Positions 1 to 8,382 of a stretch of DNA of 15,140 nt are shown here, one piece after another. A program made the position numbers and the translations under genes. This stretch comes from a virus. Lineage: Duplodnaviria > Heunggongvirae > Uroviricota > Caudoviricetes. Every line of letters begins with the position of its first letter. The stretch's first letter is position 1. Below the pieces are notes generated by a model. The model searched no databases and had not been told where the DNA came from. It worked only from the letters and a program-made list of their open reading frames with translations. The stretch covers positions 1 through 15,140 of the IMG/VR virus record IMGVR_UViG_2698536369_000028; one strand, given 5' to 3'.

Positions 1-1269
1 ATGCCAAAACTCACAGATATGCAGATCCGCGCATGGATAAAGGCGGGAGACAGATTTGATGGCAAGGCAGACGGCAACGGCCTTTATATTTGCTACCCCA
101 AAAACTACACAGTCCCGTTCTGGCGATTCCGATATAAGCTCGCAGGAAAACAGCGGGCTATGGTTATCGGCTCTTACTCCGAACTGTCACTATCAAAAGC
201 CAGAGAAACAGCAAAAGAGCTGTCAGCCAGAGTTGCTCTTGGCTATGACGTAGCAGCAGAAAAACAGGAACGAAAAGCTGAAGCCCTGGCAAAAATGGAG
301 GCTGAGAAAAACGCCATGCGCGTTTCAGATCTGGCCGCCGAATACTTCGAGCGACAGATACTTCCGAGATGGAAACATCCCGATATCCTTCGCCGGAGAA
401 TTGATAAGGATATTAACCCCTGCATTGGGCATATGAAGGTAGAGGACGTTAAGCCACGCCACATTGACGACATGTTGAAAGGTATCGTTGACCGAGGAGC
501 ACCAACGATAGCAACAGATGTATTACGCTGGACACGCCGTATCTTTGACTATGGGATAAAACGCCACGCTCTGGAGATAAACCCTTGTTCAGCGTTTGAA
601 GTATCTGATGCTGGTGGTAAAGAGGTTTCCCGCGACCGTTGGCTAACTCGCGATGAGCTTATCAAGCTATTCGAGGCTATGCGCACCGCAAAAGGATTCA
701 GCCGCCAGAACGAACTGACATTTAAGCTATTGCTGGCACTATGCGTTCGTAAGATGGAGTTATGCGCCGCACGATGGGAAGAGTTTGATTTAGATGGTGC
801 GGTATGGCATTTGCCGGAAGAACGCAGCAAAAACGGAGACCCTATTGATATACCTCTACCTTCTCCAGCCGTTGAATGGTTGAGAGAGCTACACACCTTT
901 TCATGTAATAGCGCATGGGTGCTTCCGGCCAGGAAGATGCAAAACAGAATGATCCCACATATTCAGGAAAGCACTTTACCCGTAGCACTGGCTAAGGTTC
1001 GCGCCGAAATGCCGGATGTGCCTAATTTCACGATTCACGACTTCCGGCGTACCGCACGTACTCATTTAGCAGCATTGGGTGTTGATCCTGTCGTAGCGGA
1101 ACGATGCCTCAATCATCGCATTAAGGGTGTAGAGGGGATTTATAACCGCCATCAGTATTTTGATGAGCGTAAAGCTGCGCTGGCACAGTGGGCTGATCTG
1201 CTGGTGGAACTGGAAAGCGGAAATGACTACAACGTAACGCCATTCGATAAAGCCAGGAGGCAAATGTGA
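1..1269 (+). CDS. int: Tyrosine recombinase, P4-family phage integrase (422 aa)
   Basis: Seen: N-terminus MPKLTDMQIRAWIKAGDRFDGKADGNGLY and C-terminal HDFRRTART...NHRIKGVEGIYNRHQY. Established: this N-terminal arm-binding pattern and the catalytic R/H/R/Y region are typical of P4-type integrases. Starts at window position 1, so upstream context (att site, tRNA/tmRNA) is not visible. Confidence 0.9.
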   Translation: MPKLTDMQIRAWIKAGDRFDGKADGNGLYICYPKNYTVPFWRFRYKLAGKQRAMVIGSYSELSLSKARETAKELSARVALGYDVAAEKQERKAEALAKMEAEKNAMRVSDLAAEYFERQILPRWKHPDILRRRIDKDINPCIGHMKVEDVKPRHIDDMLKGIVDRGAPTIATDVLRWTRRIFDYGIKRHALEINPCSAFEVSDAGGKEVSRDRWLTRDELIKLFEAMRTAKGFSRQNELTFKLLLALCVRKMELCAARWEEFDLDGAVWHLPEERSKNGDPIDIPLPSPAVEWLRELHTFSCNSAWVLPARKMQNRMIPHIQESTLPVALAKVRAEMPDVPNFTIHDFRRTARTHLAALGVDPVVAERCLNHRIKGVEGIYNRHQYFDERKAALAQWADLLVELESGNDYNVTPFDKARRQM

Positions 1270-1916
1270 ACAACATCTTGAGAAAATCGCCAATCGAACG
1301 GCTTTGTTCATCTGTATCGATTACCCCTCATGAAATGGCTGTGGCCTTGGCTGGCCTAAACCCATCTATGCGCATTAGCGATGTGCCTGAGGAAAATTTC
1401 GAATATGTCGATTTTGTCAGAACTCATCTTGCCAGAGCTATCAAGGTGTACAGAGGTGAAAAAACTAGTAAAGACGAGCCTTGCCATGCCCTTGATATTT
1501 TCTTAGCTTCTTACCCATTTATTGACACAAATACACCAGAAATAATTGTTCAGAAAATATCAGAAGCGATTGATGATTTGCGTGGCACCAAGGGATGGGA
1601 AGAAAAAGCCCGAAATCTTGGAGGACTCCAGTTAGTAAACTACATCAAAGAAACCAACCGCAGCGGACGTGGGCAGCATAGAAAGCAGGATGAGGAAAAC
1701 GGGACAATGAAAATGATGGGGTTGATAGTACATCTGCTGATAAAAAAATCAGGCTCATCTTCCTACATCCAAAATGGGAAACCTAATCGCACAGCTATAT
1801 ACCGTGACATAGAAACCTTAATCAAGGATGAAGGGATATCCCATAAAGGAATAGCAAAAGCCACATTCCTAGAAAAAATCTCACGGGCTTTATTAGCTGT
1901 CCACGATCTCGACTAA
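1266..1916 (+). CDS. Hypothetical protein (216 aa from GTG; alternative in-frame ATG at 1335)
   Basis: Seen: long ORF whose GTG overlaps the integrase stop; AT-rich by eye relative to neighbours; no motif I recognise. Start codon uncertain. Confidence 0.5.
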   Translation: MNNILRKSPIERLCSSVSITPHEMAVALAGLNPSMRISDVPEENFEYVDFVRTHLARAIKVYRGEKTSKDEPCHALDIFLASYPFIDTNTPEIIVQKISEAIDDLRGTKGWEEKARNLGGLQLVNYIKETNRSGRGQHRKQDEENGTMKMMGLIVHLLIKKSGSSSYIQNGKPNRTAIYRDIETLIKDEGISHKGIAKATFLEKISRALLAVHDLD

Positions 1917-2407
1917 TCACTTTTCACGCCCCTCCAAAGCAATGGCGGGGCTTACCTCATATGACGAGGAATTACCTGTTTACCCATCTCCACCAGCATA
2001 GATAATTCTCGCCTAGCCATTGCTATATCTGTTCAGCTTAGTTCATCTGTAATCACCCCATCTCTAAAAGATACGCCAGCTATCATTAGCCATTTTAAGC
2101 CATCATGAGCCATTATAAACCGACTCAACCAATTGAATAATAAAAGATAAAAAGAAATGTAAAAACATGATGAATGACGATGAAAGATATAACTCTTTGA
2201 TAAAACAATGATTTTTTAAAACAGGTAACTAATTGAAAATAAAGAAAATAATTACCCCCCCCTGCATTTGGAATCTTTCAGTGGATCGGTATTTTTTCAA
2301 TAGATTTATAATTTCTTTCGATAGATTCTAGTCTTAATAGAAATACTGTATAGGCAACCACTAAACTTTAAGTAACTTCACGAGCTATCAGAGAGGTTAC
2401 TAGAGAT

Positions 2408-2626
2408 ATGACAGCACACAAGCCAGCATCATCAGCTATCCCAACAACTGGATACATCCGTCGCTTTCGCATGCCGGAATTGCTAGGTGTTTCACTGCCT
2501 ACTATTGATAGATGGGTTAAAAATGGCACTCTTCCACGCCCAGTGAAGCTGACAGATAACGTGACTGCGTTTGATGCGGTGGAAATTAATAACTGGCTGG
2601 CAGAACGCCGAAACACATCAGCCTGA
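2408..2626 (+). CDS. alpA: AlpA-family phage transcriptional regulator / excisionase-like HTH protein (72 aa)
   Basis: Seen: IRRFRMPELLGVSLPTIDRWVKNGTLPRPVKL...AFDAVEINNWL; GAGAGG about 12 nt upstream of ATG. Established: matches the AlpA (Phage_AlpA) HTH pattern and the usual int-alpA neighbourhood. Confidence 0.85.
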   Translation: MTAHKPASSAIPTTGYIRRFRMPELLGVSLPTIDRWVKNGTLPRPVKLTDNVTAFDAVEINNWLAERRNTSA

Positions 2627-2700
2627 TTAAATGACTACGGGGGATGACGTTCTACCCCACCAGCAAATAAAAGTAACTTAATTCGACAGCAGGAGTTTCA

Positions 2701-3399
2701 ATGAAACGTCCAAATATGCCCGTACAGGGGCAGGGCTTCGTTCGGCCTGAAACCAGCATGAGCGATATTCTGGTTAGTCACAAACAGGAGTCGCGCATTG
2801 ATTCGCGCTTATTTGCTGAGCGTATTGGCATAAAGCACAAAAACCTTTATTCGCTCATTCAGAAGCACAAAACCGGATTGCGTGAACTGGGCATCCTTCC
2901 GTTTCAAACGGAGCGATTAAAAACCCGTCAAAATGGGGAGCGTGAACATAAGTTTGCCCTCCTGAATAGCGATCAGTTTGATTACATGTGTCGCATTGTG
3001 CGCGGTCGTGATGATGAACGCATGAACCGCTTCAAGCTGGATGTTACAAAGGCATTTGCAAAGCGTCGCGCCGCTGAACCCGTACGCCGCGAATATCTGC
3101 CGGGCTATCACGAAAGCCGTGAGGGGCTTAAAGCACTGGGTGCAGAACGTCACCACTACATCAATCTGGCACGCACAGAAAACCGTTTTGCCGGATTGGT
3201 AACAGGTGAACGCCAGGCAGCCAGCGATCCGCAGTTAGGTTTGCTGGTGGTCATGCAGAAAATCGAGCAGGCAGCATTTCACGAAGCGATACAGAACGGC
3301 ATGACACCGACCGAAGCGGTGCGGGAGGTTGCCCGCCGCATGGAGACGTTCGCCAGCCTGATAACGTCAGCGCCGTCTCTGGGGGTGAAATATGCGTAA
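2701..3399 (+). CDS. Rha-like phage regulatory (antirepressor-type) protein (232 aa)
   Basis: Seen: N-terminal ILVSHKQESRIDSRLFAERIGIKHKNLYSLIQKH. Inference: resembles the Rha-family N-terminal DNA-binding region from memory; not verified by search. Confidence 0.6.
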   Translation: MKRPNMPVQGQGFVRPETSMSDILVSHKQESRIDSRLFAERIGIKHKNLYSLIQKHKTGLRELGILPFQTERLKTRQNGEREHKFALLNSDQFDYMCRIVRGRDDERMNRFKLDVTKAFAKRRAAEPVRREYLPGYHESREGLKALGAERHHYINLARTENRFAGLVTGERQAASDPQLGLLVVMQKIEQAAFHEAIQNGMTPTEAVREVARRMETFASLITSAPSLGVKYA

Positions 3400-4168
3400 T
3401 TATGTTATCCCGCCCAATCATGAAGGCGGTTATATTTATGTGGCGCTTTCTGACATTGGATTAGTTAAGGTTGGAAAAACCAGAAATGTTTCAGCCAGAA
3501 TGAAACAGCTATCCACTGGTAGCGGCATCGAAATCACTAAAGTTGAGGTGTTGGGGCCATTTGTTAATTACGGACAAGTTGAGTTAGCTATTCATGCAAA
3601 ACTTTCATCAGAACGCCGCTCTGGTGAATGGTTTTCTGCCGATTTGGATACGGTTAAAGCAATTGCCATCGACGCATCAAGAATTGGCACTCCAGGTACG
3701 AAGTTAGTTAATAAAGATGTTAACCATCCAATAATTGTTTACTTGTGGCTTGACGCACATGAGAAACACACCGAGTACGAGAAAAAACTATGTGAAATAC
3801 TGTCTGATAGAGCAATTAACTTTCTTAATAATTATGGTGCGCCTTGCGTCCCATATGTTGCTTTATGCATTCATACAATGGGGCAGGTCATTCTTCAACA
3901 AGGCCAAAAGGCCTACTCTGTGTATCCACGAGGATTTGAAGCGTCCTCATTGCATCAATTAAGGGAGGATTGGGGGAATTTTGCAGATAAAGATATTTTC
4001 GAAAACTCTGAATTTGACGAGTTTCTTATAGATATAAGCGATAAAGATAAATTTAAGTCCGCGGCTGAGAAATGGAGGTCTGAGGCAATAAATAATCTTT
4101 TCGCAGAACTTACAGATGATTACCAGCGCTGGTTAGCCCGCCACATGGAGGTGAGCAGCCATGCGTAA
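3392..4168 (+). CDS. T5orf172 (MUG113, GIY-YIG-like) domain protein with uncharacterised C-terminal half (258 aa)
   Basis: Seen: GYIYVALSDIGLVKVGKTRNVSARMKQLS...ELAIHAKLSSERRSGEWFSADLDTV, the typical T5orf172 pattern (GYIYV, KIGKT, R..L, GEWF). Gene is AT-rich by eye; start overlaps the upstream stop within ATGCGTAA. Confidence 0.7.
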   Translation: MRNYVIPPNHEGGYIYVALSDIGLVKVGKTRNVSARMKQLSTGSGIEITKVEVLGPFVNYGQVELAIHAKLSSERRSGEWFSADLDTVKAIAIDASRIGTPGTKLVNKDVNHPIIVYLWLDAHEKHTEYEKKLCEILSDRAINFLNNYGAPCVPYVALCIHTMGQVILQQGQKAYSVYPRGFEASSLHQLREDWGNFADKDIFENSEFDEFLIDISDKDKFKSAAEKWRSEAINNLFAELTDDYQRWLARHMEVSSHA

Positions 4169-4718
4169 ACCTGTCTTTTATGCCGGGCGCACTGAAATCT
4201 CTGTCATTAAATTCGATGACATTCAGGTGCGCATAGTGAGTATCAACGGCGAACCGTGGTTTGTTGGCGCTGATGTGTGTGCTGCGCTGGAAATCAGCAA
4301 TGTTACTGATGCCGTTTCAGTTCTGGATAACGACGAGGTAATGACCCTAGCTTTAACCGAGGGGCATTCCGGTAAGCGTGGTGGTGCCAGAAGCTGGAAT
4401 GTTGTCTCTGAATCAGGTTTCTACAAACTGATCGCCCGCAGCCGTAAAGCTTCCACACCAGGCACATTTGCGCACCGTTTCAGTAACTGGGTATTCCGCG
4501 AGGTTATCCCTTCAATCCGCAAAACGGGGGGTTATGGTGTTCCGTTTGCCATGCTGAATGATTTCAGTAAACGCCAGGCTGCCTATCAACAGGAAGCCAG
4601 CAAACGCGGTTACAGGTTACAGCAATGCAAAGAGGCAAAAGATGCACTGGAACGAGAAGAGCGGGCGCTATGGCGTAAATATCAGCCTGATTTTCTGGAG
4701 GGTGAAAACAATGTGTAA
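4161..4718 (+). CDS. Bro-N domain protein (phage antirepressor-type, 185 aa)
   Basis: Seen: FDDIQVRIVSINGEPWFVGADVCAALEISNVTDAVSVLD...ESGFYKLIARSRKA...FSNWVFREVIPSIRKTGGY, a classic Bro-N pattern. Start overlaps the upstream stop within ATGCGTAA. Confidence 0.85.
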   Translation: MRKPVFYAGRTEISVIKFDDIQVRIVSINGEPWFVGADVCAALEISNVTDAVSVLDNDEVMTLALTEGHSGKRGGARSWNVVSESGFYKLIARSRKASTPGTFAHRFSNWVFREVIPSIRKTGGYGVPFAMLNDFSKRQAAYQQEASKRGYRLQQCKEAKDALEREERALWRKYQPDFLEGENNV

Positions 4719-4765
4719 CGATCCGAACGTTACAGAAAGAAAAAGCGCTACGTTGCTGGATAACT

Positions 4766-4797
4766 GGCAAAACAAAGGCGACCGGGAGAGGTCGCCA
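4766..4797 (-). terminator. Candidate intrinsic terminator for the leftward small-gene operon
   Basis: Seen: inverted repeat GGCGACC (4777-4783) / GGTCGCC (4790-4796); on the minus strand the hairpin is followed by TTTGTTTTG (complement of 4768-4776). No T-run after the hairpin on the plus strand. Confidence 0.45.
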
Positions 4798-4862
4798 GTG
4801 GGAACAAAGGAAATCAAACGCATCGCCAACAATGCCAGATTTGCAGCTGGTGGGCAATGTGA

Positions 4863-5057
4863 TCAGTCAGATTTGGTTCGTTCCAGGGTTTGCAACGAGA
4901 GCTTTTTCCTGTGCTCTTTAAGGAATTTCTCAAGAGCAAACGAACAAGGTGCGAATCTTTCTGATTCATGTTCATGCGCTATATTTTTGCGTCGTCTCTT
5001 ACGAGTTGGTGATGGTGTTTTGGTTGATTCTTTATCGGTCATTGTGTTGTCCTGCAT
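4863..5057 (-). CDS. Hypothetical small basic protein (64 aa or shorter)
   Basis: Seen: ORF with charged, Lys/Arg-rich composition lying between the small minus-strand gene and the minus-strand terminator. No clear Shine-Dalgarno; start uncertain. Confidence 0.4.
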   Translation of the reverse strand: MQDNTMTDKESTKTPSPTRKRRRKNIAHEHESERFAPCSFALEKFLKEHRKKLSLQTLERTKSD

Positions 5058-5099
5058 AGCAATGCGCCTGCGTTCCTCAAACTATGGCGCTGATAGTGG

Positions 5100-5279
5100 C
5101 TATTCCTGCTCTTTGGCCTTCCGGCGCTGTCGGCGTTTGATCTCGCCGCGCATGGCTGCACTTATAAACTGCCCTGTACTTTCGCCTTCTTCTTTCACGT
5201 TTTCCATGCCTTCAATAATTTCATGGGCAATACGTGCAGTTACAGATTGTGATTTTGCATTCTTTGGACCTGTTGCCAT
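5100..5279 (-). CDS. Small putative DNA-binding protein, possible repressor (59 aa from internal ATG)
   Basis: Seen: AAGGAG 6 nt upstream of the ATG at 5279 (minus strand); protein MATGPKNAKSQSVTARIAHEIIEGMENV... Inference: short strand-then-helix layout looks ribbon-helix-helix-like; it is divergent from an operator-bearing promoter region. Confidence 0.5.
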   Translation of the reverse strand: MATGPKNAKSQSVTARIAHEIIEGMENVKEEGESTGQFISAAMRGEIKRRQRRKAKEQE

Positions 5280-5295
5280 GTCTAACTCCTTATGT

Positions 5296-5395
5296 TTTTG
5301 GTGTAAGACAATATACATGAAAAAAAATTATTTTGAAGGGTTGACGTGTAAGACACTGCTATTTTACATTGTGTCTTACACCTTGTTGGTGCAAG
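5296..5395. promoter_or_regulatory. Divergent promoter/operator region with three copies of a 10-mer
   Basis: Seen: GTGTAAGACA at 5301-5310 and 5346-5355, inverted copy TGTCTTACAC at 5372-5381; TTGACG at 5341-5346 with a possible -10 (TTACAT) about 17 nt downstream for rightward transcription. Sits between divergently oriented genes. Confidence 0.5.
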
Positions 5396-5478
5396 GTGCA
5401 GAAACGACGAAACCCGGCAGTGCTGGAACACTAACCGGGCTTCTAACCACCAACGATAGCAGAAGTATCGAGGTAGCT

Positions 5479-5682
5479 ATGAGAAATCATACCACACACC
5501 CGCAAGGGCGGGACTCGCACAACCTGAATAAATACATCTGGCGTTTTATCGCCCTGAGCACGGCACAACCGCGCGTAATCCACATTGAGGCCACCAGAGA
5601 ACAGGAAGCCCGTCAGCAATCCCCGGCTGGCTGCGTGATGGTATTTACTGCCCGCATCCGTCAGGAGGAACACTATGCGTGA
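5479..5682 (+). CDS. Small protein, Icd-like (host cell-division-inhibitor-like, 67 aa)
   Basis: Seen: GAGGT 5 nt upstream of ATG; KYIWRFIALSTAQPRVIHIEATREQEARQQ...VMVFTARIR. Inference: resembles Icd-like small proteins of P4-type elements from memory; unverified. Confidence 0.5.
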   Translation: MRNHTTHPQGRDSHNLNKYIWRFIALSTAQPRVIHIEATREQEARQQSPAGCVMVFTARIRQEEHYA

Positions 5683-5932
5683 TGAACGATTTATTCTTCT
5701 GGAGCAAAAATTCAGCGAAGCGCCAAAAAATGAAATTGATGCTCTTTTGCATATCGCGAATATGCTAAAAGTAGCAACGTTCCTTATAGTTTCGAATCTG
5801 GAGCATGAAACGGCGTTAGATATACTGAACAGTGCTGTCGATTATTCTGAATATATTGCCGAGGATAAATACAGGCAATTACCAGATTTGTTAACCCATA
5901 AATATAAAGAAGAACCCCATACCGGGAAATAA
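5675..5932 (+). CDS. Hypothetical protein (85 aa)
   Basis: Seen: ORF whose ATG overlaps the upstream stop within ATGCGTGA; lies in a same-strand gene string leading to the primase. No recognised motif. Confidence 0.5.
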   Translation: MRDERFILLEQKFSEAPKNEIDALLHIANMLKVATFLIVSNLEHETALDILNSAVDYSEYIAEDKYRQLPDLLTHKYKEEPHTGK

Positions 5933-5934
5933 AC

Positions 5935-6237
5935 ATGAAGAAGATTAAATTTACTGGCTTAAATGCCAGCGGACAGACTCACCCGAAAATCAGGATCGGG
6001 GATATTTTCCGGGATAAATATGGCGACAGTGTGGTTATTAATTCCGTGTATGAACGGCACATTACATACCGCCGCGCAGGGTACGACTATGACTGTGTGA
6101 TGCCCGTTCATCAGTTCCGGCGTGATTTTTCACTGGTATGTGCAGCACCACGCAGTAAGCCCACCAGTAAAGAGAAAGCACGGGCAAATATTCAGGTAAT
6201 AAAGAACATGATTAACGCATTCAGGGGCAAGAAATGA
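5935..6237 (+). CDS. Hypothetical protein (100 aa)
   Basis: Seen: ORF whose stop overlaps the primase start as ATGA. No recognised motif. Confidence 0.5.
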   Translation: MKKIKFTGLNASGQTHPKIRIGDIFRDKYGDSVVINSVYERHITYRRAGYDYDCVMPVHQFRRDFSLVCAAPRSKPTSKEKARANIQVIKNMINAFRGKK

Positions 6238-8360
6238 AACGCGCACCGAATTTAAAGCACCAGCCGAAAGACAAAATGACGGAGGTGATTATCTTTGCGG
6301 GTAGTGATGCCTGGGCACATGCGAAAGAGTGGAGCGAATGGGCCGGAAAGCATATTGCGGCAGATGATACACATCCAGTTATTCTTGGACCGGAACAACT
6401 GGCGAGTCTGGCAGACACGCAAATCATCGACAAAGGGCGCTATTACGTGCGCGTTTATCGTGCTGGTGAAATATCAGAGCAGCACCTTACACAGATAGCG
6501 ACACTGCTTGCAGTGGCGGGTGTGAAGGAGGCGCGTTGCTACCGCAGCTTTGTTGACCAGCAGCCGGAGGACTGGACACCGCGCATGGCTGGACTGAAGG
6601 ATGATGCGGAACGCGGTAACAGTCTGGTGTTCAACCTTCCGGCAAAGACAAATTTCACCGGAAATTATGATGACGAATTAAAGCCTCGTGTTGAAAGTCG
6701 CGTCGATGGTGTTTTCTGGGTAACGCCCAAAGTGGACAAGCAGTCAGGCGAAATTATCCGGCCTGAGACGTGGTTATGTTCTCCGCTTGAACTACTGGGA
6801 ACAGGAACAATCGGCAAAGAGCATTACCGCGTGATGCGCTGGAAAAAACCAGCAAACCATGAGGTCATTACAATGGCGGTCCCGTGCGGAGGCATTGGTG
6901 ACCGTGACGGCTGGCGGTTGCTGAAAGACCACGGTCTTAACGTGACGACCAACGGCAAATACAGAGCCATCCTGGCTGACTGGATGCAGTTAAGCGGAAG
7001 TCATGAGGAATGGCAGCTAAGCACTACAACGGGCTGGCATTTTGGTGCGTACATCATGCCGGATGGTTCGGTCATTGGTGAATCAGAGAAACCCATCCTG
7101 TTTACCGGAAAAACTGCCGCAGTTAATGGCTATTCCGTGGCGGGAACAGCGGAGGGCTGGCGCGATACCGTGGCGCGGCTGGCTGGTGGTAATCCGTCCA
7201 TGATGCTGGGTGTGGCGGTATCGCTATCCGCACCATTAATCGGGCTGGTGGGTGCTGACGGCTTCGGGGTTCATCTTTTTGAGCAATCATCAGCAGGTAA
7301 AACCACCACACAGAACATTGCATCAAGTTTATGGGGAGAGCCGGACGCGCAACGGCTGACCTGGTACGGAACGGCGTTAGGTATCGCCAACGAGGCCGAA
7401 GCACATAATGACGGGCTGTTACCCCTGGATGAAATAGGCCAGGCCGGAAACGCACGGGAGGTGTCCACGTCAGCCTATACGCTGTTTAACGGTTCCGGGA
7501 AATTACAGGGGGCGAAGGACGGCGGCAACAGGGAGATAAAACACTGGCGCACGGTGGCAATCAGCACCGGAGAAATGGACGTTGAAACATTCCTCAAAAC
7601 GGAAGGGATAAAAATTAAAGCGGGGCAGCTTGTCCGTCTGCTTAACGTACCGATGGAAAAGGCCTCGCAGTTTCACGAATACAGCACCGGAAAGGCGCAC
7701 GCAGACGCGTTAAAAGATGCCTGGACAGAAAATCACGGGGCGGCAGGTCGTGAGTGGGTTAAATGGCTGGCAGGCCACCAGCAGGAGGCAAAGGACGCGG
7801 TAAGGGCATGTCGCGAACGGTGGCGCAACCTGATACCGGAGAGCTACGGCGAGCAGGTTCACCGTGTGGGGGAAAGATTCGCCGTACTGGAGGCCGCGCT
7901 TGTGCTTTCCGGTCATGTTACAGGCTGGGATGTTCAGGCGTGCCGTGATGCAGTTCAGCATAACTTTAATGCCTGGGTGAAGGAATTCGGCACGGGCAAC
8001 AGGGAATTTAAACAGATGGTTGAACAGGCTGAGGCGTTTTTGTCGTCGTTCGGGTTCAGTCGATACCTTCCTTATCCAAACAGCGACGAGCGTGATTTAC
8101 CGATTAAAGACCTTGCCGGATACAGAAAGGGGAGTATCAGAAACGAAGATGACGAGTTCCGTTTTTACACGTTCCCGCATGTGTTTGAGGGTGAGATAGC
8201 ACAGGGATTTAATCCGTCTCACTTTGCCCGCGCGTTGAGTGCTGCCGGAATGCTGGAAGCGGGAGGCGACCGCCGTTACAAGAAAAAGGCGCTCGGCAGG
8301 ATTGGCGGGAAGCAGCATATTTTTTACGTGCTGATGTTCCAGCCTGAAGCAGAAGATTAA
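6234..8360 (+). CDS. Replication protein: primase (Toprim-like N-terminus) with a P-loop NTPase/helicase-like C-terminal region (708 aa)
   Basis: Seen: N-terminal TEVIIFAGSDAWAHAKEW...PVILGPEQ (Toprim-like) and a central P-loop-like SSAGKTT. Inference: D5/DUF927-type primase-helicase, consistent with the adjacent iteron origin, SSB and int/alpA backbone. Confidence 0.8.
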   Translation: MKRAPNLKHQPKDKMTEVIIFAGSDAWAHAKEWSEWAGKHIAADDTHPVILGPEQLASLADTQIIDKGRYYVRVYRAGEISEQHLTQIATLLAVAGVKEARCYRSFVDQQPEDWTPRMAGLKDDAERGNSLVFNLPAKTNFTGNYDDELKPRVESRVDGVFWVTPKVDKQSGEIIRPETWLCSPLELLGTGTIGKEHYRVMRWKKPANHEVITMAVPCGGIGDRDGWRLLKDHGLNVTTNGKYRAILADWMQLSGSHEEWQLSTTTGWHFGAYIMPDGSVIGESEKPILFTGKTAAVNGYSVAGTAEGWRDTVARLAGGNPSMMLGVAVSLSAPLIGLVGADGFGVHLFEQSSAGKTTTQNIASSLWGEPDAQRLTWYGTALGIANEAEAHNDGLLPLDEIGQAGNAREVSTSAYTLFNGSGKLQGAKDGGNREIKHWRTVAISTGEMDVETFLKTEGIKIKAGQLVRLLNVPMEKASQFHEYSTGKAHADALKDAWTENHGAAGREWVKWLAGHQQEAKDAVRACRERWRNLIPESYGEQVHRVGERFAVLEAALVLSGHVTGWDVQACRDAVQHNFNAWVKEFGTGNREFKQMVEQAEAFLSSFGFSRYLPYPNSDERDLPIKDLAGYRKGSIRNEDDEFRFYTFPHVFEGEIAQGFNPSHFARALSAAGMLEAGGDRRYKKKALGRIGGKQHIFYVLMFQPEAED

Positions 8361-8382
8361 CTTCCCTGTGTGAGGTAAAAAG

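Follow-up and report, generated by a model that had tools for sequence, protein, structure and literature searches.

The phage-inducible chromosomal islands (PICIs) of Gram-negative bacteria and the capsid-forming PICIs (cf-PICIs) are abundant satellites which move defence and virulence genes. The model island EcCICFT073 is induced via a helper-induced activator, AlpA, in a manner that is not SOS-dependent, and over-expression of AlpA alone leads to its excision and replication (PMC6092414). This founding paper on the Gram-negative PICIs identified only the activator, and called it unclear whether a global repressor exists. The present analysis concerns a 15,140-nt stretch of viral DNA (IMG/VR record IMGVR_UViG_2698536369_000028, positions 1 to 15,140), referred to as the window, which appears to hold an island of the EcCICFT073 type. 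Between positions 5100 and 5682 a 59-aa gene of the YlcI/YnfO family is divergent from an operon that begins with an Icd-like gene and continues to a primase-helicase gene. This interval is probably the master control region of the island and would contain two locks, a ribbon-helix-helix (RHH) repressor with three operators and a SymR-like antisense RNA.

The nearest described counterpart of the RNA is the symE/symR pair of E. coli K-12 (RF01809). It has been shown experimentally that SymR represses the synthesis of SymE; the -10 of symR (CATTCT in symE) lies in symE codons 5-7, and two silent changes abolish SymR (Kawano et al., PMC1891008). SymR and the island RNA align over their full length in both directions, at 33 bits with the Rfam model and at 32.5 bits with a covariance model built from the islands (R1). 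These scores are far below the Rfam gathering threshold, so the island RNAs are not annotated by Rfam. Both RNAs have two stem-loops, a UUAG linker, a 5' end at the start of the target open reading frame (ORF), cover over the Shine-Dalgarno (SD) sequence and start codon, and a sigma-70 -10 embedded in the first target codons, which stands in the symE register in most relatives but not in the window. The target differs, as here it is an Icd-like gene at the head of the island replication operon and there the AbrB-fold SymE. The sense promoter also differs, being guarded here by predicted RHH operators and there by LexA boxes.

The immI region of phage P22 encodes small RHH repressors, Mnt and Arc, with operators over the divergent promoters Pant and Pmnt, and a short antisense RNA, sar, lies over a downstream ribosome site. 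In the immI regions of P1 and P7, with the arrangement C4 RNA-icd-ant, a small RNA blocks translation of the first gene product, Icd, with a polar effect on the genes behind. The combination of an RHH repressor and a small RNA resembles that of the interval described here. However, P22 has one 21-bp operator in place of three separate 10-11-bp boxes set 22-45 bp apart, the C4 RNA of P1 is sense-encoded and processed whereas the RNA here is cis-antisense, and the downstream genes encode an antirepressor in the phages and replication proteins in the island.

The omega repressor of pSM19035 is an RHH protein (PDB 1irq, 2bnw) of which one dimer reads each asymmetric repeat, whichever way the repeat points, a feature comparable to the variable orientation of the third box here. 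Its heptads are contiguous and cooperatively bound, unlike the longer GTG-N5-CAC boxes, which are separated and fixed at three promoter positions. The genes of the Stl and Rpr master repressors of the Gram-positive PICIs (SaPIs) are likewise divergent from the satellite excision and replication operon (PMC6092414). Those repressors are large helix-turn-helix proteins relieved by helper-phage proteins, whereas the protein here is a 59-aa predicted RHH protein in islands which need the activator AlpA.

In the FinOP system (FinP, traJ and FinO), as here, a two-stem-loop cis-antisense RNA lies across the ribosome site of an operon's first regulatory gene, and the island in the window also encodes a ProQ/FinO-domain protein. 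A partnership in which this protein would assist the antisense RNA as FinO assists FinP was considered and downgraded. A ProQ homologue lies within 6 kb in 2 of the 31 related genome loci (L006 and L010) and none is present in EcCICFT073; it is therefore not an obligate partner.

The YlcI/YnfO-family protein and its predicted operators

The initial annotation described three copies of a 10-mer, two direct and one inverted, which overlap a plausible promoter facing the Icd-like/primase operon, and a divergent 59-aa gene with a strong ribosome-binding site. These features are all present as described (Table 1). A search placed GTGTAAGACA at 5301-5310 (+), 5346-5355 (+) and 5372-5381 (-), with no further copy elsewhere in the window even when one mismatch was allowed. 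The first copy extends to GGTGTAAGACA, and the second and third extend to a perfect 11-nt inverted repeat, GTGTAAGACAC and GTGTCTTACAC separated by 14 nt. The extended boxes are referred to as O1, O2 and O3. When the 199-nt intergenic region was shuffled 20,000 times, only 3 of the shuffled sequences contained a 10-mer that occurs at least three times on either strand. O1 overlaps the -10 and the predicted start of the leftward promoter (P_L) and is thus a predicted site of autoregulation, while O2 and O3 are placed on the rightward promoter (P_R).

The 59-aa protein matches the NCBIfam family NF041551 (YlcI/YnfO; DUF3950) over residues 9-50 with 66.8 bits (cut-off 30), and RefSeq gives the identical protein the same family name. 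It is predicted to adopt an RHH (MetJ/Arc) fold, with an N-terminal beta-strand followed by two helices, which agrees with the earlier description of the protein as a DNA-binding type. The fold was modelled as a monomer. The predicted DNA-reading strand comprises residues 10-17 (SQSVTARI), and residues 12 and 14, at alternate strand positions, co-vary with the core of the boxes. No homology to Mnt or Arc is detectable at the level of sequence. A tblastn search of 50,697 deposited phage genomes returned no match to the protein, which at this level of similarity marks the family as one of satellites and islands rather than of sequenced phages.

The family takes its name from YlcI of E. coli K-12, whose genomic context is unlike that of the window. 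The K-12 gene (L034 4252-4446, DLP12 prophage) has an RHH-like sequence pattern and is flanked by ybcW and by the terminase gene nohD, close to cos. A 101-aa YlcI variant with the strand SQSLTARI is encoded by islands with capsid genes in E. coli ATCC 25922 and CFSAN061768 (L035 6249-6554 and L036 6284-6589). Its C-terminal helix contains about 40 inserted aa, and this insertion may be an oligomerisation domain. The boxes of these two islands are degenerate with a TGTAAG core, and a fourth one lies inverted between O1 and O2.

The comparative set comprised 112 loci, namely the window, 31 loci from one-genome-per-species contigs and 80 loci from IMG/VR. The genome and IMG/VR loci include near-duplicates, and statistics were computed on distinct sequences. 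The initial annotation had staked its reading on conservation of the repeats in related elements, and the box positions are indeed conserved in the 112 loci. Three GTG-N5-CA(C) boxes occur at the same places: one covers the leftward -10/+1, another adjoins the rightward -35, and the last covers the rightward +1. O1, a GTG-N5-CA box, is exactly 22 nt from the ylcI ATG in 30 of the 32 genome loci and in most IMG/VR loci. O2, a GTG-N5-CAC box, lies 66-68 nt from this ATG in nearly all relatives, at 45 bp from O1, and directly abuts a conserved TTGAcG. The third box is found 88-95 or 101-104 nt from the ATG, which places it 22-26 or 35 bp beyond O2, and it may be direct or inverted. Among 58 distinct sequences the conserved scaffold reads GGTG-N5-CA-gTATAC, then an A-tract, then TTGAcGTG-N5-CAC, and the N5 core is not conserved. 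The -10 of P_L (TATAnT) and the A-tract upstream of it are kept in these sequences; the -35 of P_L is not.

That the repeats are a product of chance or a relic, and the small ORF no regulator, has next to no probability. There are only three short repeats and the promoter calls are consensus matches, but shuffling hardly ever reproduces the repeats, their positions are conserved, and all three boxes change in concert through the 112 loci and many genera.

The three cores agree within a locus, differ between loci and follow strand residues 12 and 14. Ser and Thr (S,T) at these positions accompany the core TAAGA in 34 loci, including the window; M,T accompany TATGT or TATTT (21 loci); A,K or S,K accompany GGGGA, GGCCA or GACCA (18); K,E accompany GCTGA (12); K,Q accompany GAGTA, GAGTC or GAATC (9); R,D accompany TCCGA (5); and Q,N accompany CGATT or CTATT (5). 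The pairs Q,A; Q,V; L,T and Q,S have their own core each. In a Mantel test of this link r was 0.70, a value that none of 10,000 permutations attained. The correlation with adjacent non-box DNA was much weaker (r 0.29-0.43).

Some co-variation will come from shared descent, since the protein and the boxes are physically linked, and for this reason comparisons were stratified by the identity of the rest of the protein. At a helix identity of 50-70%, core identity was 0.98 between proteins with matching strands and 0.30 between those with differing strands; at 70-85% the values were 0.96 and 0.28. Four genomes (P. brasiliense, P. carotovorum, P. versatile and Y. pekkanenii) have two modules each, and the specificities within a genome always differ. 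The comparison argues strongly for a cognate repressor-operator pair, with specificity falling into at least 12 classes. The co-variation appears to make about the strongest case for a cognate protein-operator pair that purely comparative evidence allows. The three boxes are very probably operator sites for a small repressor which silences a phage-parasitising island. Among 5,426 complete E. coli genomes, at least 701 have a ylcI-operator region that can be detected.

The boxes could instead be bound by AlpA, by an integrase or excisionase, or by a replication initiator acting on iterons, with the YlcI-like protein otherwise employed, for example in neutralising the Icd-like protein. Short direct and inverted repeats are also typical of iterons and recombinase arm sites, and the binding of YlcI to the boxes is itself a prediction. 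Such a reading is nevertheless quite improbable, as the core follows residues 12 and 14 of the YlcI-like protein even at equal divergence of its remaining part, and the boxes occupy the -35, -10 and +1 positions of two promoters. TGTAAG-core boxes are kept in the ATCC 25922 and CFSAN061768 islands although their primases share only an N-terminal segment with the DUF927 protein of the window, which argues against iterons of a replication protein; moreover, DUF927 is present in 12 of the 31 loci and the boxes in all 31. The candidate role as iterons or origin was rejected, since it is the YlcI strand that the boxes track rather than the replication protein.

The predicted SymR-like antisense RNA

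The initial annotation read the interval as a repressor-operator switch. This part gains strong comparative support from the residue/core co-variation across the 112 loci, but the account was incomplete, as a putative antisense RNA in the same interval was missed. A permissive Rfam scan matched SymR (RF01809) on the minus strand at 5406-5478 with 33 bits (E 4e-4), and the Rfam model matched 4 of 5 other loci scanned, at the expected place and strand, with 35.5-45.6 bits. At gathering level, a scan of the whole window gave no match. The RNA is treated here as a putative distant homologue of SymR. As predicted, it covers the SD, most of the leader of about 100 nt, and part or all of the Icd-like start codon, depending on whether its 5' end is 5478 or 5479.

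The fold energy in the window is -48.8 kcal/mol (z -6.8) for the minus strand and -33 (z -3.2) for the plus strand. An alignment of the leader stretch from the window and the 31 genome loci gave a consensus of two stem-loops with 22 pairs, of which 14 show compensatory changes. Read on the minus strand, the helix cells contain 95 G-U and 2 A-C combinations, which favours a minus-strand RNA because in a plus-strand RNA the bias would be reversed. The consensus energy is -28.7 in the antisense direction and -12.5 in the sense direction, and the antisense fold is the more stable in 32/32 sequences.

Model R1, built from this alignment, gives 80 bits on the window RNA, and finds the whole of the annotated K-12 symR in the right strand orientation (32.5 bits, E 2e-6, with R1 E-values being rough). 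It also finds the RNA in 80/80 independent IMG/VR loci, always on the ylcI strand and at a constant distance from ylcI. In the IMG/VR set 98.1% of cells are paired and 15 pairs are doubly changed (alignment A4 was fitted to the model); 0/500 shuffles reach the observed value, and slid controls reach 34-47%.

The promoter of the RNA is predicted to be an extended -10 (TGGTATGAT) within Icd-like codons 3-6. A TAnnnT ends exactly 6 nt upstream of model position 1, which is 5479 in the window, in 62 of the 64 distinct sequences. Its three key bases are invariant though the overlapping Icd-like codon 6 may encode H, S, D, C or F. In most relatives this -10 occupies ORF nt 14-19, as in symE, and in the window ORF nt 8-13, 6 nt nearer the ATG.

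Alternatively, the conserved structure in the leader could belong to an immunity RNA of the P1 C4 or P4 CI type, encoded on the sense strand, processed from the rightward transcript and acting on downstream targets. The icd gene of P1 is controlled by a sense-encoded C4 RNA. RNAs of the C4/isrK type have been reported in some Gram-negative PICIs (PMC10111431), and the helices are similar on both strands. Such an RNA was the initial expectation and was rejected on the strand evidence, that is, the G-U to A-C ratio and the consensus energies. In addition, the conserved -10 stands at a fixed minus-strand offset and the symR homology is in the symR orientation. C4, P4 CI and IsrK (RF01695, RF01394) have no gathering-level match in the window and none at E<=10 in 4800-6000. 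Together these observations leave the sense-strand alternative only a slim chance beside a cis-antisense RNA.

Extra SymR-like copies occur away from the ylcI-proximal one, at L028 929-1001 (+) and at about 3548-3630 (+) in L045-L047, with 41 bits (Rfam) and 60-68 bits (R1). They may be tandem or neighbouring elements, or mark a second regulated operon. The co-resident modules of Y. pekkanenii (L016 and L021) differ in RHH/operator specificity but have an identical second RNA stem-loop (85% identity overall). The RNA layer may thus cross-talk between islands where the protein layer does not.

The Icd-like gene, predicted target of the RNA

The Icd-like protein matches NCBIfam NF033153 with 64.9 bits (cut-off 25). 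Its gene and those behind it overlap or abut (5675/5682, 5932/5935 and 6234/6237), the Icd-like stop overlapping the next start at 5675. RefSeq records a 159-aa 'Icd-like' coding sequence at 5206-5682 (L001 12407-12883), which runs antisense through ylcI and across all three operators. This version looks over-extended, because the conserved start, the SD GAGG and the family domain fit a protein of 67 aa from 5479. In CFT073 the short version is annotated. The protein also falls in the PHROGs 'transcriptional repressor' families phrog_6196 (4e-42) and phrog_1743, and in NCBIfam it is labelled a cell-division inhibitor.

Proposed mechanism of control

In the first lock, one predicted dimer of the 59-aa RHH protein would bind each 10-11-bp GTG-N5-CA(C) box, here with the core TAAGA. 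The specificity would be set mainly by strand residues 12 and 14, in this case Ser and Thr. Bound at O2, between the -35 and -10, and at O3, over the +1, the protein would block RNA polymerase at P_R of the Icd-like/DUF4222/primase-helicase operon, while O1, over the P_L -10/+1, would give negative autoregulation of ylcI. The positions of the boxes on the promoters are repressing and not activating ones. As the residue/core pairs differ from island to island, co-resident islands would be orthogonal.

The second lock would be an RNA of about 75 nt, transcribed from the extended -10 in the first Icd-like codons and antisense to the start codon, SD and leader. It may pair with any rightward transcript, so that Icd-like translation is blocked and/or the mRNA destabilised. 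This action is inferred from its homology to the experimentally studied SymR. Since the operon genes overlap or abut, a block of translation would probably also lower the downstream replication genes through coupling and polarity.

The initial annotation had further suggested the region as a target of SOS signals. This idea finds no support, because no LexA-like box (CTGT-N8-ACAG, <=1 mismatch) is present in 5250-5500; the induction of EcCICFT073 is in any case AlpA-driven. A possible and purely speculative bypass is read-through of the alpA operon across the convergent ylcI, which would silence ylcI and circumvent P_R. In the window the alpA, Rha, GIY-YIG and Bro genes are co-directional and converge on ylcI, and no strong plus-strand terminator was found between them and ylcI. 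The AlpA of P. aeruginosa is described as an antiterminator (PMC9998450).

A different division of labour is conceivable, in which the Icd-like protein and the antisense RNA form a self-contained type I toxin-antitoxin pair like symE/symR, the RHH protein only autoregulates or fine-tunes, and AlpA alone governs induction. In its favour, the RNA shares homology with the SymR antitoxin, proteins of the Icd family carry the annotation of cell-division inhibitor, and AlpA over-expression by itself is sufficient to induce EcCICFT073 (PMC6092414). This arrangement is unlikely, although it carries more weight than the other alternatives considered: O2 and O3 lie on the promoter of the whole operon, which is translationally linked through to the primase-helicase, and the 112 loci conserve where the boxes stand with respect to the rightward -35 and +1. 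It and the two-lock model are not mutually exclusive, and much of the data fits both.

Several points weigh against the two-lock model. For the first lock, part of the protein/box co-variation reflects shared descent, a concern which the stratified control lessens but does not remove. The code also has one exception, as K,S and R,D both pair with TCCGA. Classic RHH repressors have tightly packed operators, a pattern at odds with box spacings of 45 bp and 22-35 bp (45 and 25 bp in the window) and with an O3 whose orientation varies, and the PHROGs label 'transcriptional repressor' would allow the first rightward gene to be a regulator itself. The first lock may moreover be secondary, as AlpA is sufficient for the induction of EcCICFT073 and no repressor was detected in the published work. 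For the second lock, the Rfam SymR score of 33 bits is well under the gathering value of 61, so that the RNA is not a member by the Rfam criterion, and the 3' tail (UUUCGUCGUUUCUG) is a weak U-run. Binding, repression, the direction of regulation and the polarity effect are inferred from sequence, and for this subfamily binding, repression and the antisense RNA are all predictions.

Relation to the literature and significance

Both components are of known kinds, namely RHH repressors with repeated operators and SymR-type cis-antisense RNAs. In the searchable literature, from which subscription journals are mostly missing, no work on the function of YlcI/YnfO was found, nor any publication that connects SymR with PICIs or with Icd-like genes. 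A survey published in 2023 on Gram-negative PICIs reported C4/isrK-type immunity RNAs in the Bro zone and neither this RNA nor this protein (PMC10111431). A survey of 2026 listed YlcI/YnfO only as an accessory 'prophage-associated protein' (PMC13612085). Relative to this literature, a function for the YlcI/YnfO family appears to be new, as do the three single boxes at fixed positions, whose specificity code of two residues has at least 12 classes. The same appears to hold for the SymR homologues at over 100 satellite loci, every one of which scores under the Rfam threshold, and for the presence of both components in EcCICFT073.

EcCICFT073 carries the same control module as the window, with an SQALKARV strand, GGGGA/GGCCA boxes and a predicted antisense RNA at 62.6 bits; the region that corresponds to the RNA lies at NC_004431.1 1380769-1380852, minus strand. 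A concrete candidate repressor, three operators and an unannotated antisense RNA are therefore all available in the model island, and since the ylcI-operator region is also common in complete E. coli genomes, the repressor question is directly testable in strains already at hand. The proposal offers a function for a family of unknown function (YlcI/YnfO, DUF3950). The compact residue-to-base table could serve as a source of orthogonal repressor/operator parts. The SymR family is extended from a single chromosomal locus to more than 100 mobile-element loci missed by the Rfam threshold.

A broader reading is offered tentatively and with somewhat less than even confidence. Here YlcI/YnfO would be the master repressor of Gram-negative PICIs and cf-PICIs, EcCICFT073 included, with the code of residues 12 and 14 defining a dozen or more orthogonal immunity classes and with a universal SymR-family RNA; symE/symR would be a domesticated remnant of this system. 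If true, orthogonal immunity classes would let several islands coexist in one cell.

Gene order and neighbouring features

An identical copy of the window locus is found in the chromosome of E. coli SCEC020022, adjoining yicC. The gene order of the window, with int, alpA, accessory genes and a primase replication module, corresponds to that of an EcCICFT073-type Gram-negative PICI. Downstream of the alpA-like gene are Rha, GIY-YIG and Bro-N accessory genes and then two small leftward ORFs. The rightward series consists of the Icd-like gene, a hypothetical gene, DUF4222, the DUF927 primase-helicase, SSB, the ProQ/FinO-domain protein, PerC (frameshifted) and large head/injection-like proteins. 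The retrieved EcCICFT073 sequence has the order int, alpA, small ORF, YlcI/YnfO (leftward), Icd-like, further genes, DUF4222, primase, SSB, PerC and capsid.

Table 1. Positions of genes, predicted promoters, operator boxes and RNA elements in the window.
Feature	Position	Strand	Remarks
Integrase	1-1269		window gene
AlpA-like regulator	2408-2626		window gene
Probable rest of leftward unit	4777-5057	-	64-aa ORF 4863-5057 (phrog_21027); intrinsic-terminator-like hairpin 4796-4777
59-aa YlcI/YnfO-family gene	5100-5279	-	predicted RHH repressor; divergent from Icd-like/primase operon
SD of small gene	5286-5291	-	AAGGAG, 6 nt before ATG; read from sequence
Operator box O1	5300-5310	+	GGTGTAAGACA; overlaps last base of leftward -10 and predicted leftward start
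Leftward promoter-like P_L	5310-5337	-	TTCAAA (reverse complement, 5332-5337)-16-TATATT (reverse complement, 5310-5315); consensus scan
Rightward promoter-like P_R	5341-5370	+	TTGACG (5341-5346)-18-TACATT (5365-5370); predicted start ~5377; consensus scan
Operator box O2	5346-5356	+	GTGTAAGACAC; in P_R spacer, one base common with -35
Operator box O3	5371-5381	-	GTGTAAGACAC; directly after P_R -10, covers predicted +1
5' hairpin of rightward mRNA leader	5379-5398	+	predicted; 8 bp; partly overlaps O3
SymR-like cis-antisense RNA	5406-5479	-	predicted; 5' end 5478-5479, 3' end ~5406-5398; two stem-loops
Icd-like gene	5479-5682	+	67 aa; first gene of rightward operon; SD GAGG 5470-5473; predicted antisense RNA target
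Extended -10 of antisense RNA	5486-5494	-	predicted; TGGTATGAT; hexamer TATGAT (reverse complement, 5486-5491); inside codons 3-6 of Icd-like gene
ProQ/FinO-domain RNA chaperone	9033-9530	+	Pfam PF04352, 84.9 bits; downstream of SSB
138-aa ORF	9511-9927	+	matches phrog_63 'anti-repressor Ant' (2e-26)
Large protein	10596-13127	+	no Pfam domain
Large protein	13127-15055	+	no Pfam domain

The leftward transcription unit probably continues from ylcI through the 64-aa ORF to a hairpin of 6 G-C pairs followed by a T run. EcCICFT073 has a small leftward ORF at the equivalent place. A tblastn search of the 31 genome loci found no homologue of the 64-aa ORF, which is thus not a core part of the module. 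The hairpin in the rightward leader is present only in some relatives, with equivalents where the spacing of the third box is closer.

The Rfam int-alpA motif (RF02996) was not detected in the window; it scores above the gathering level in the related islands L028 (3847-3913) and L006 (8461-8529). The PerC-family gene (about 9934-10160) and the Bro-N gene (about 4160-4718) are annotated as frameshifted in the identical RefSeq locus. The two large proteins encoded at 10596-15055 match phrog_992 'head protein' (E 4e-296), injection/transglycosylase families and phrog_1145, and resemble the 'DNA transfer protein'-like genes downstream of the EcCIMP1 primase (PMC11773190).

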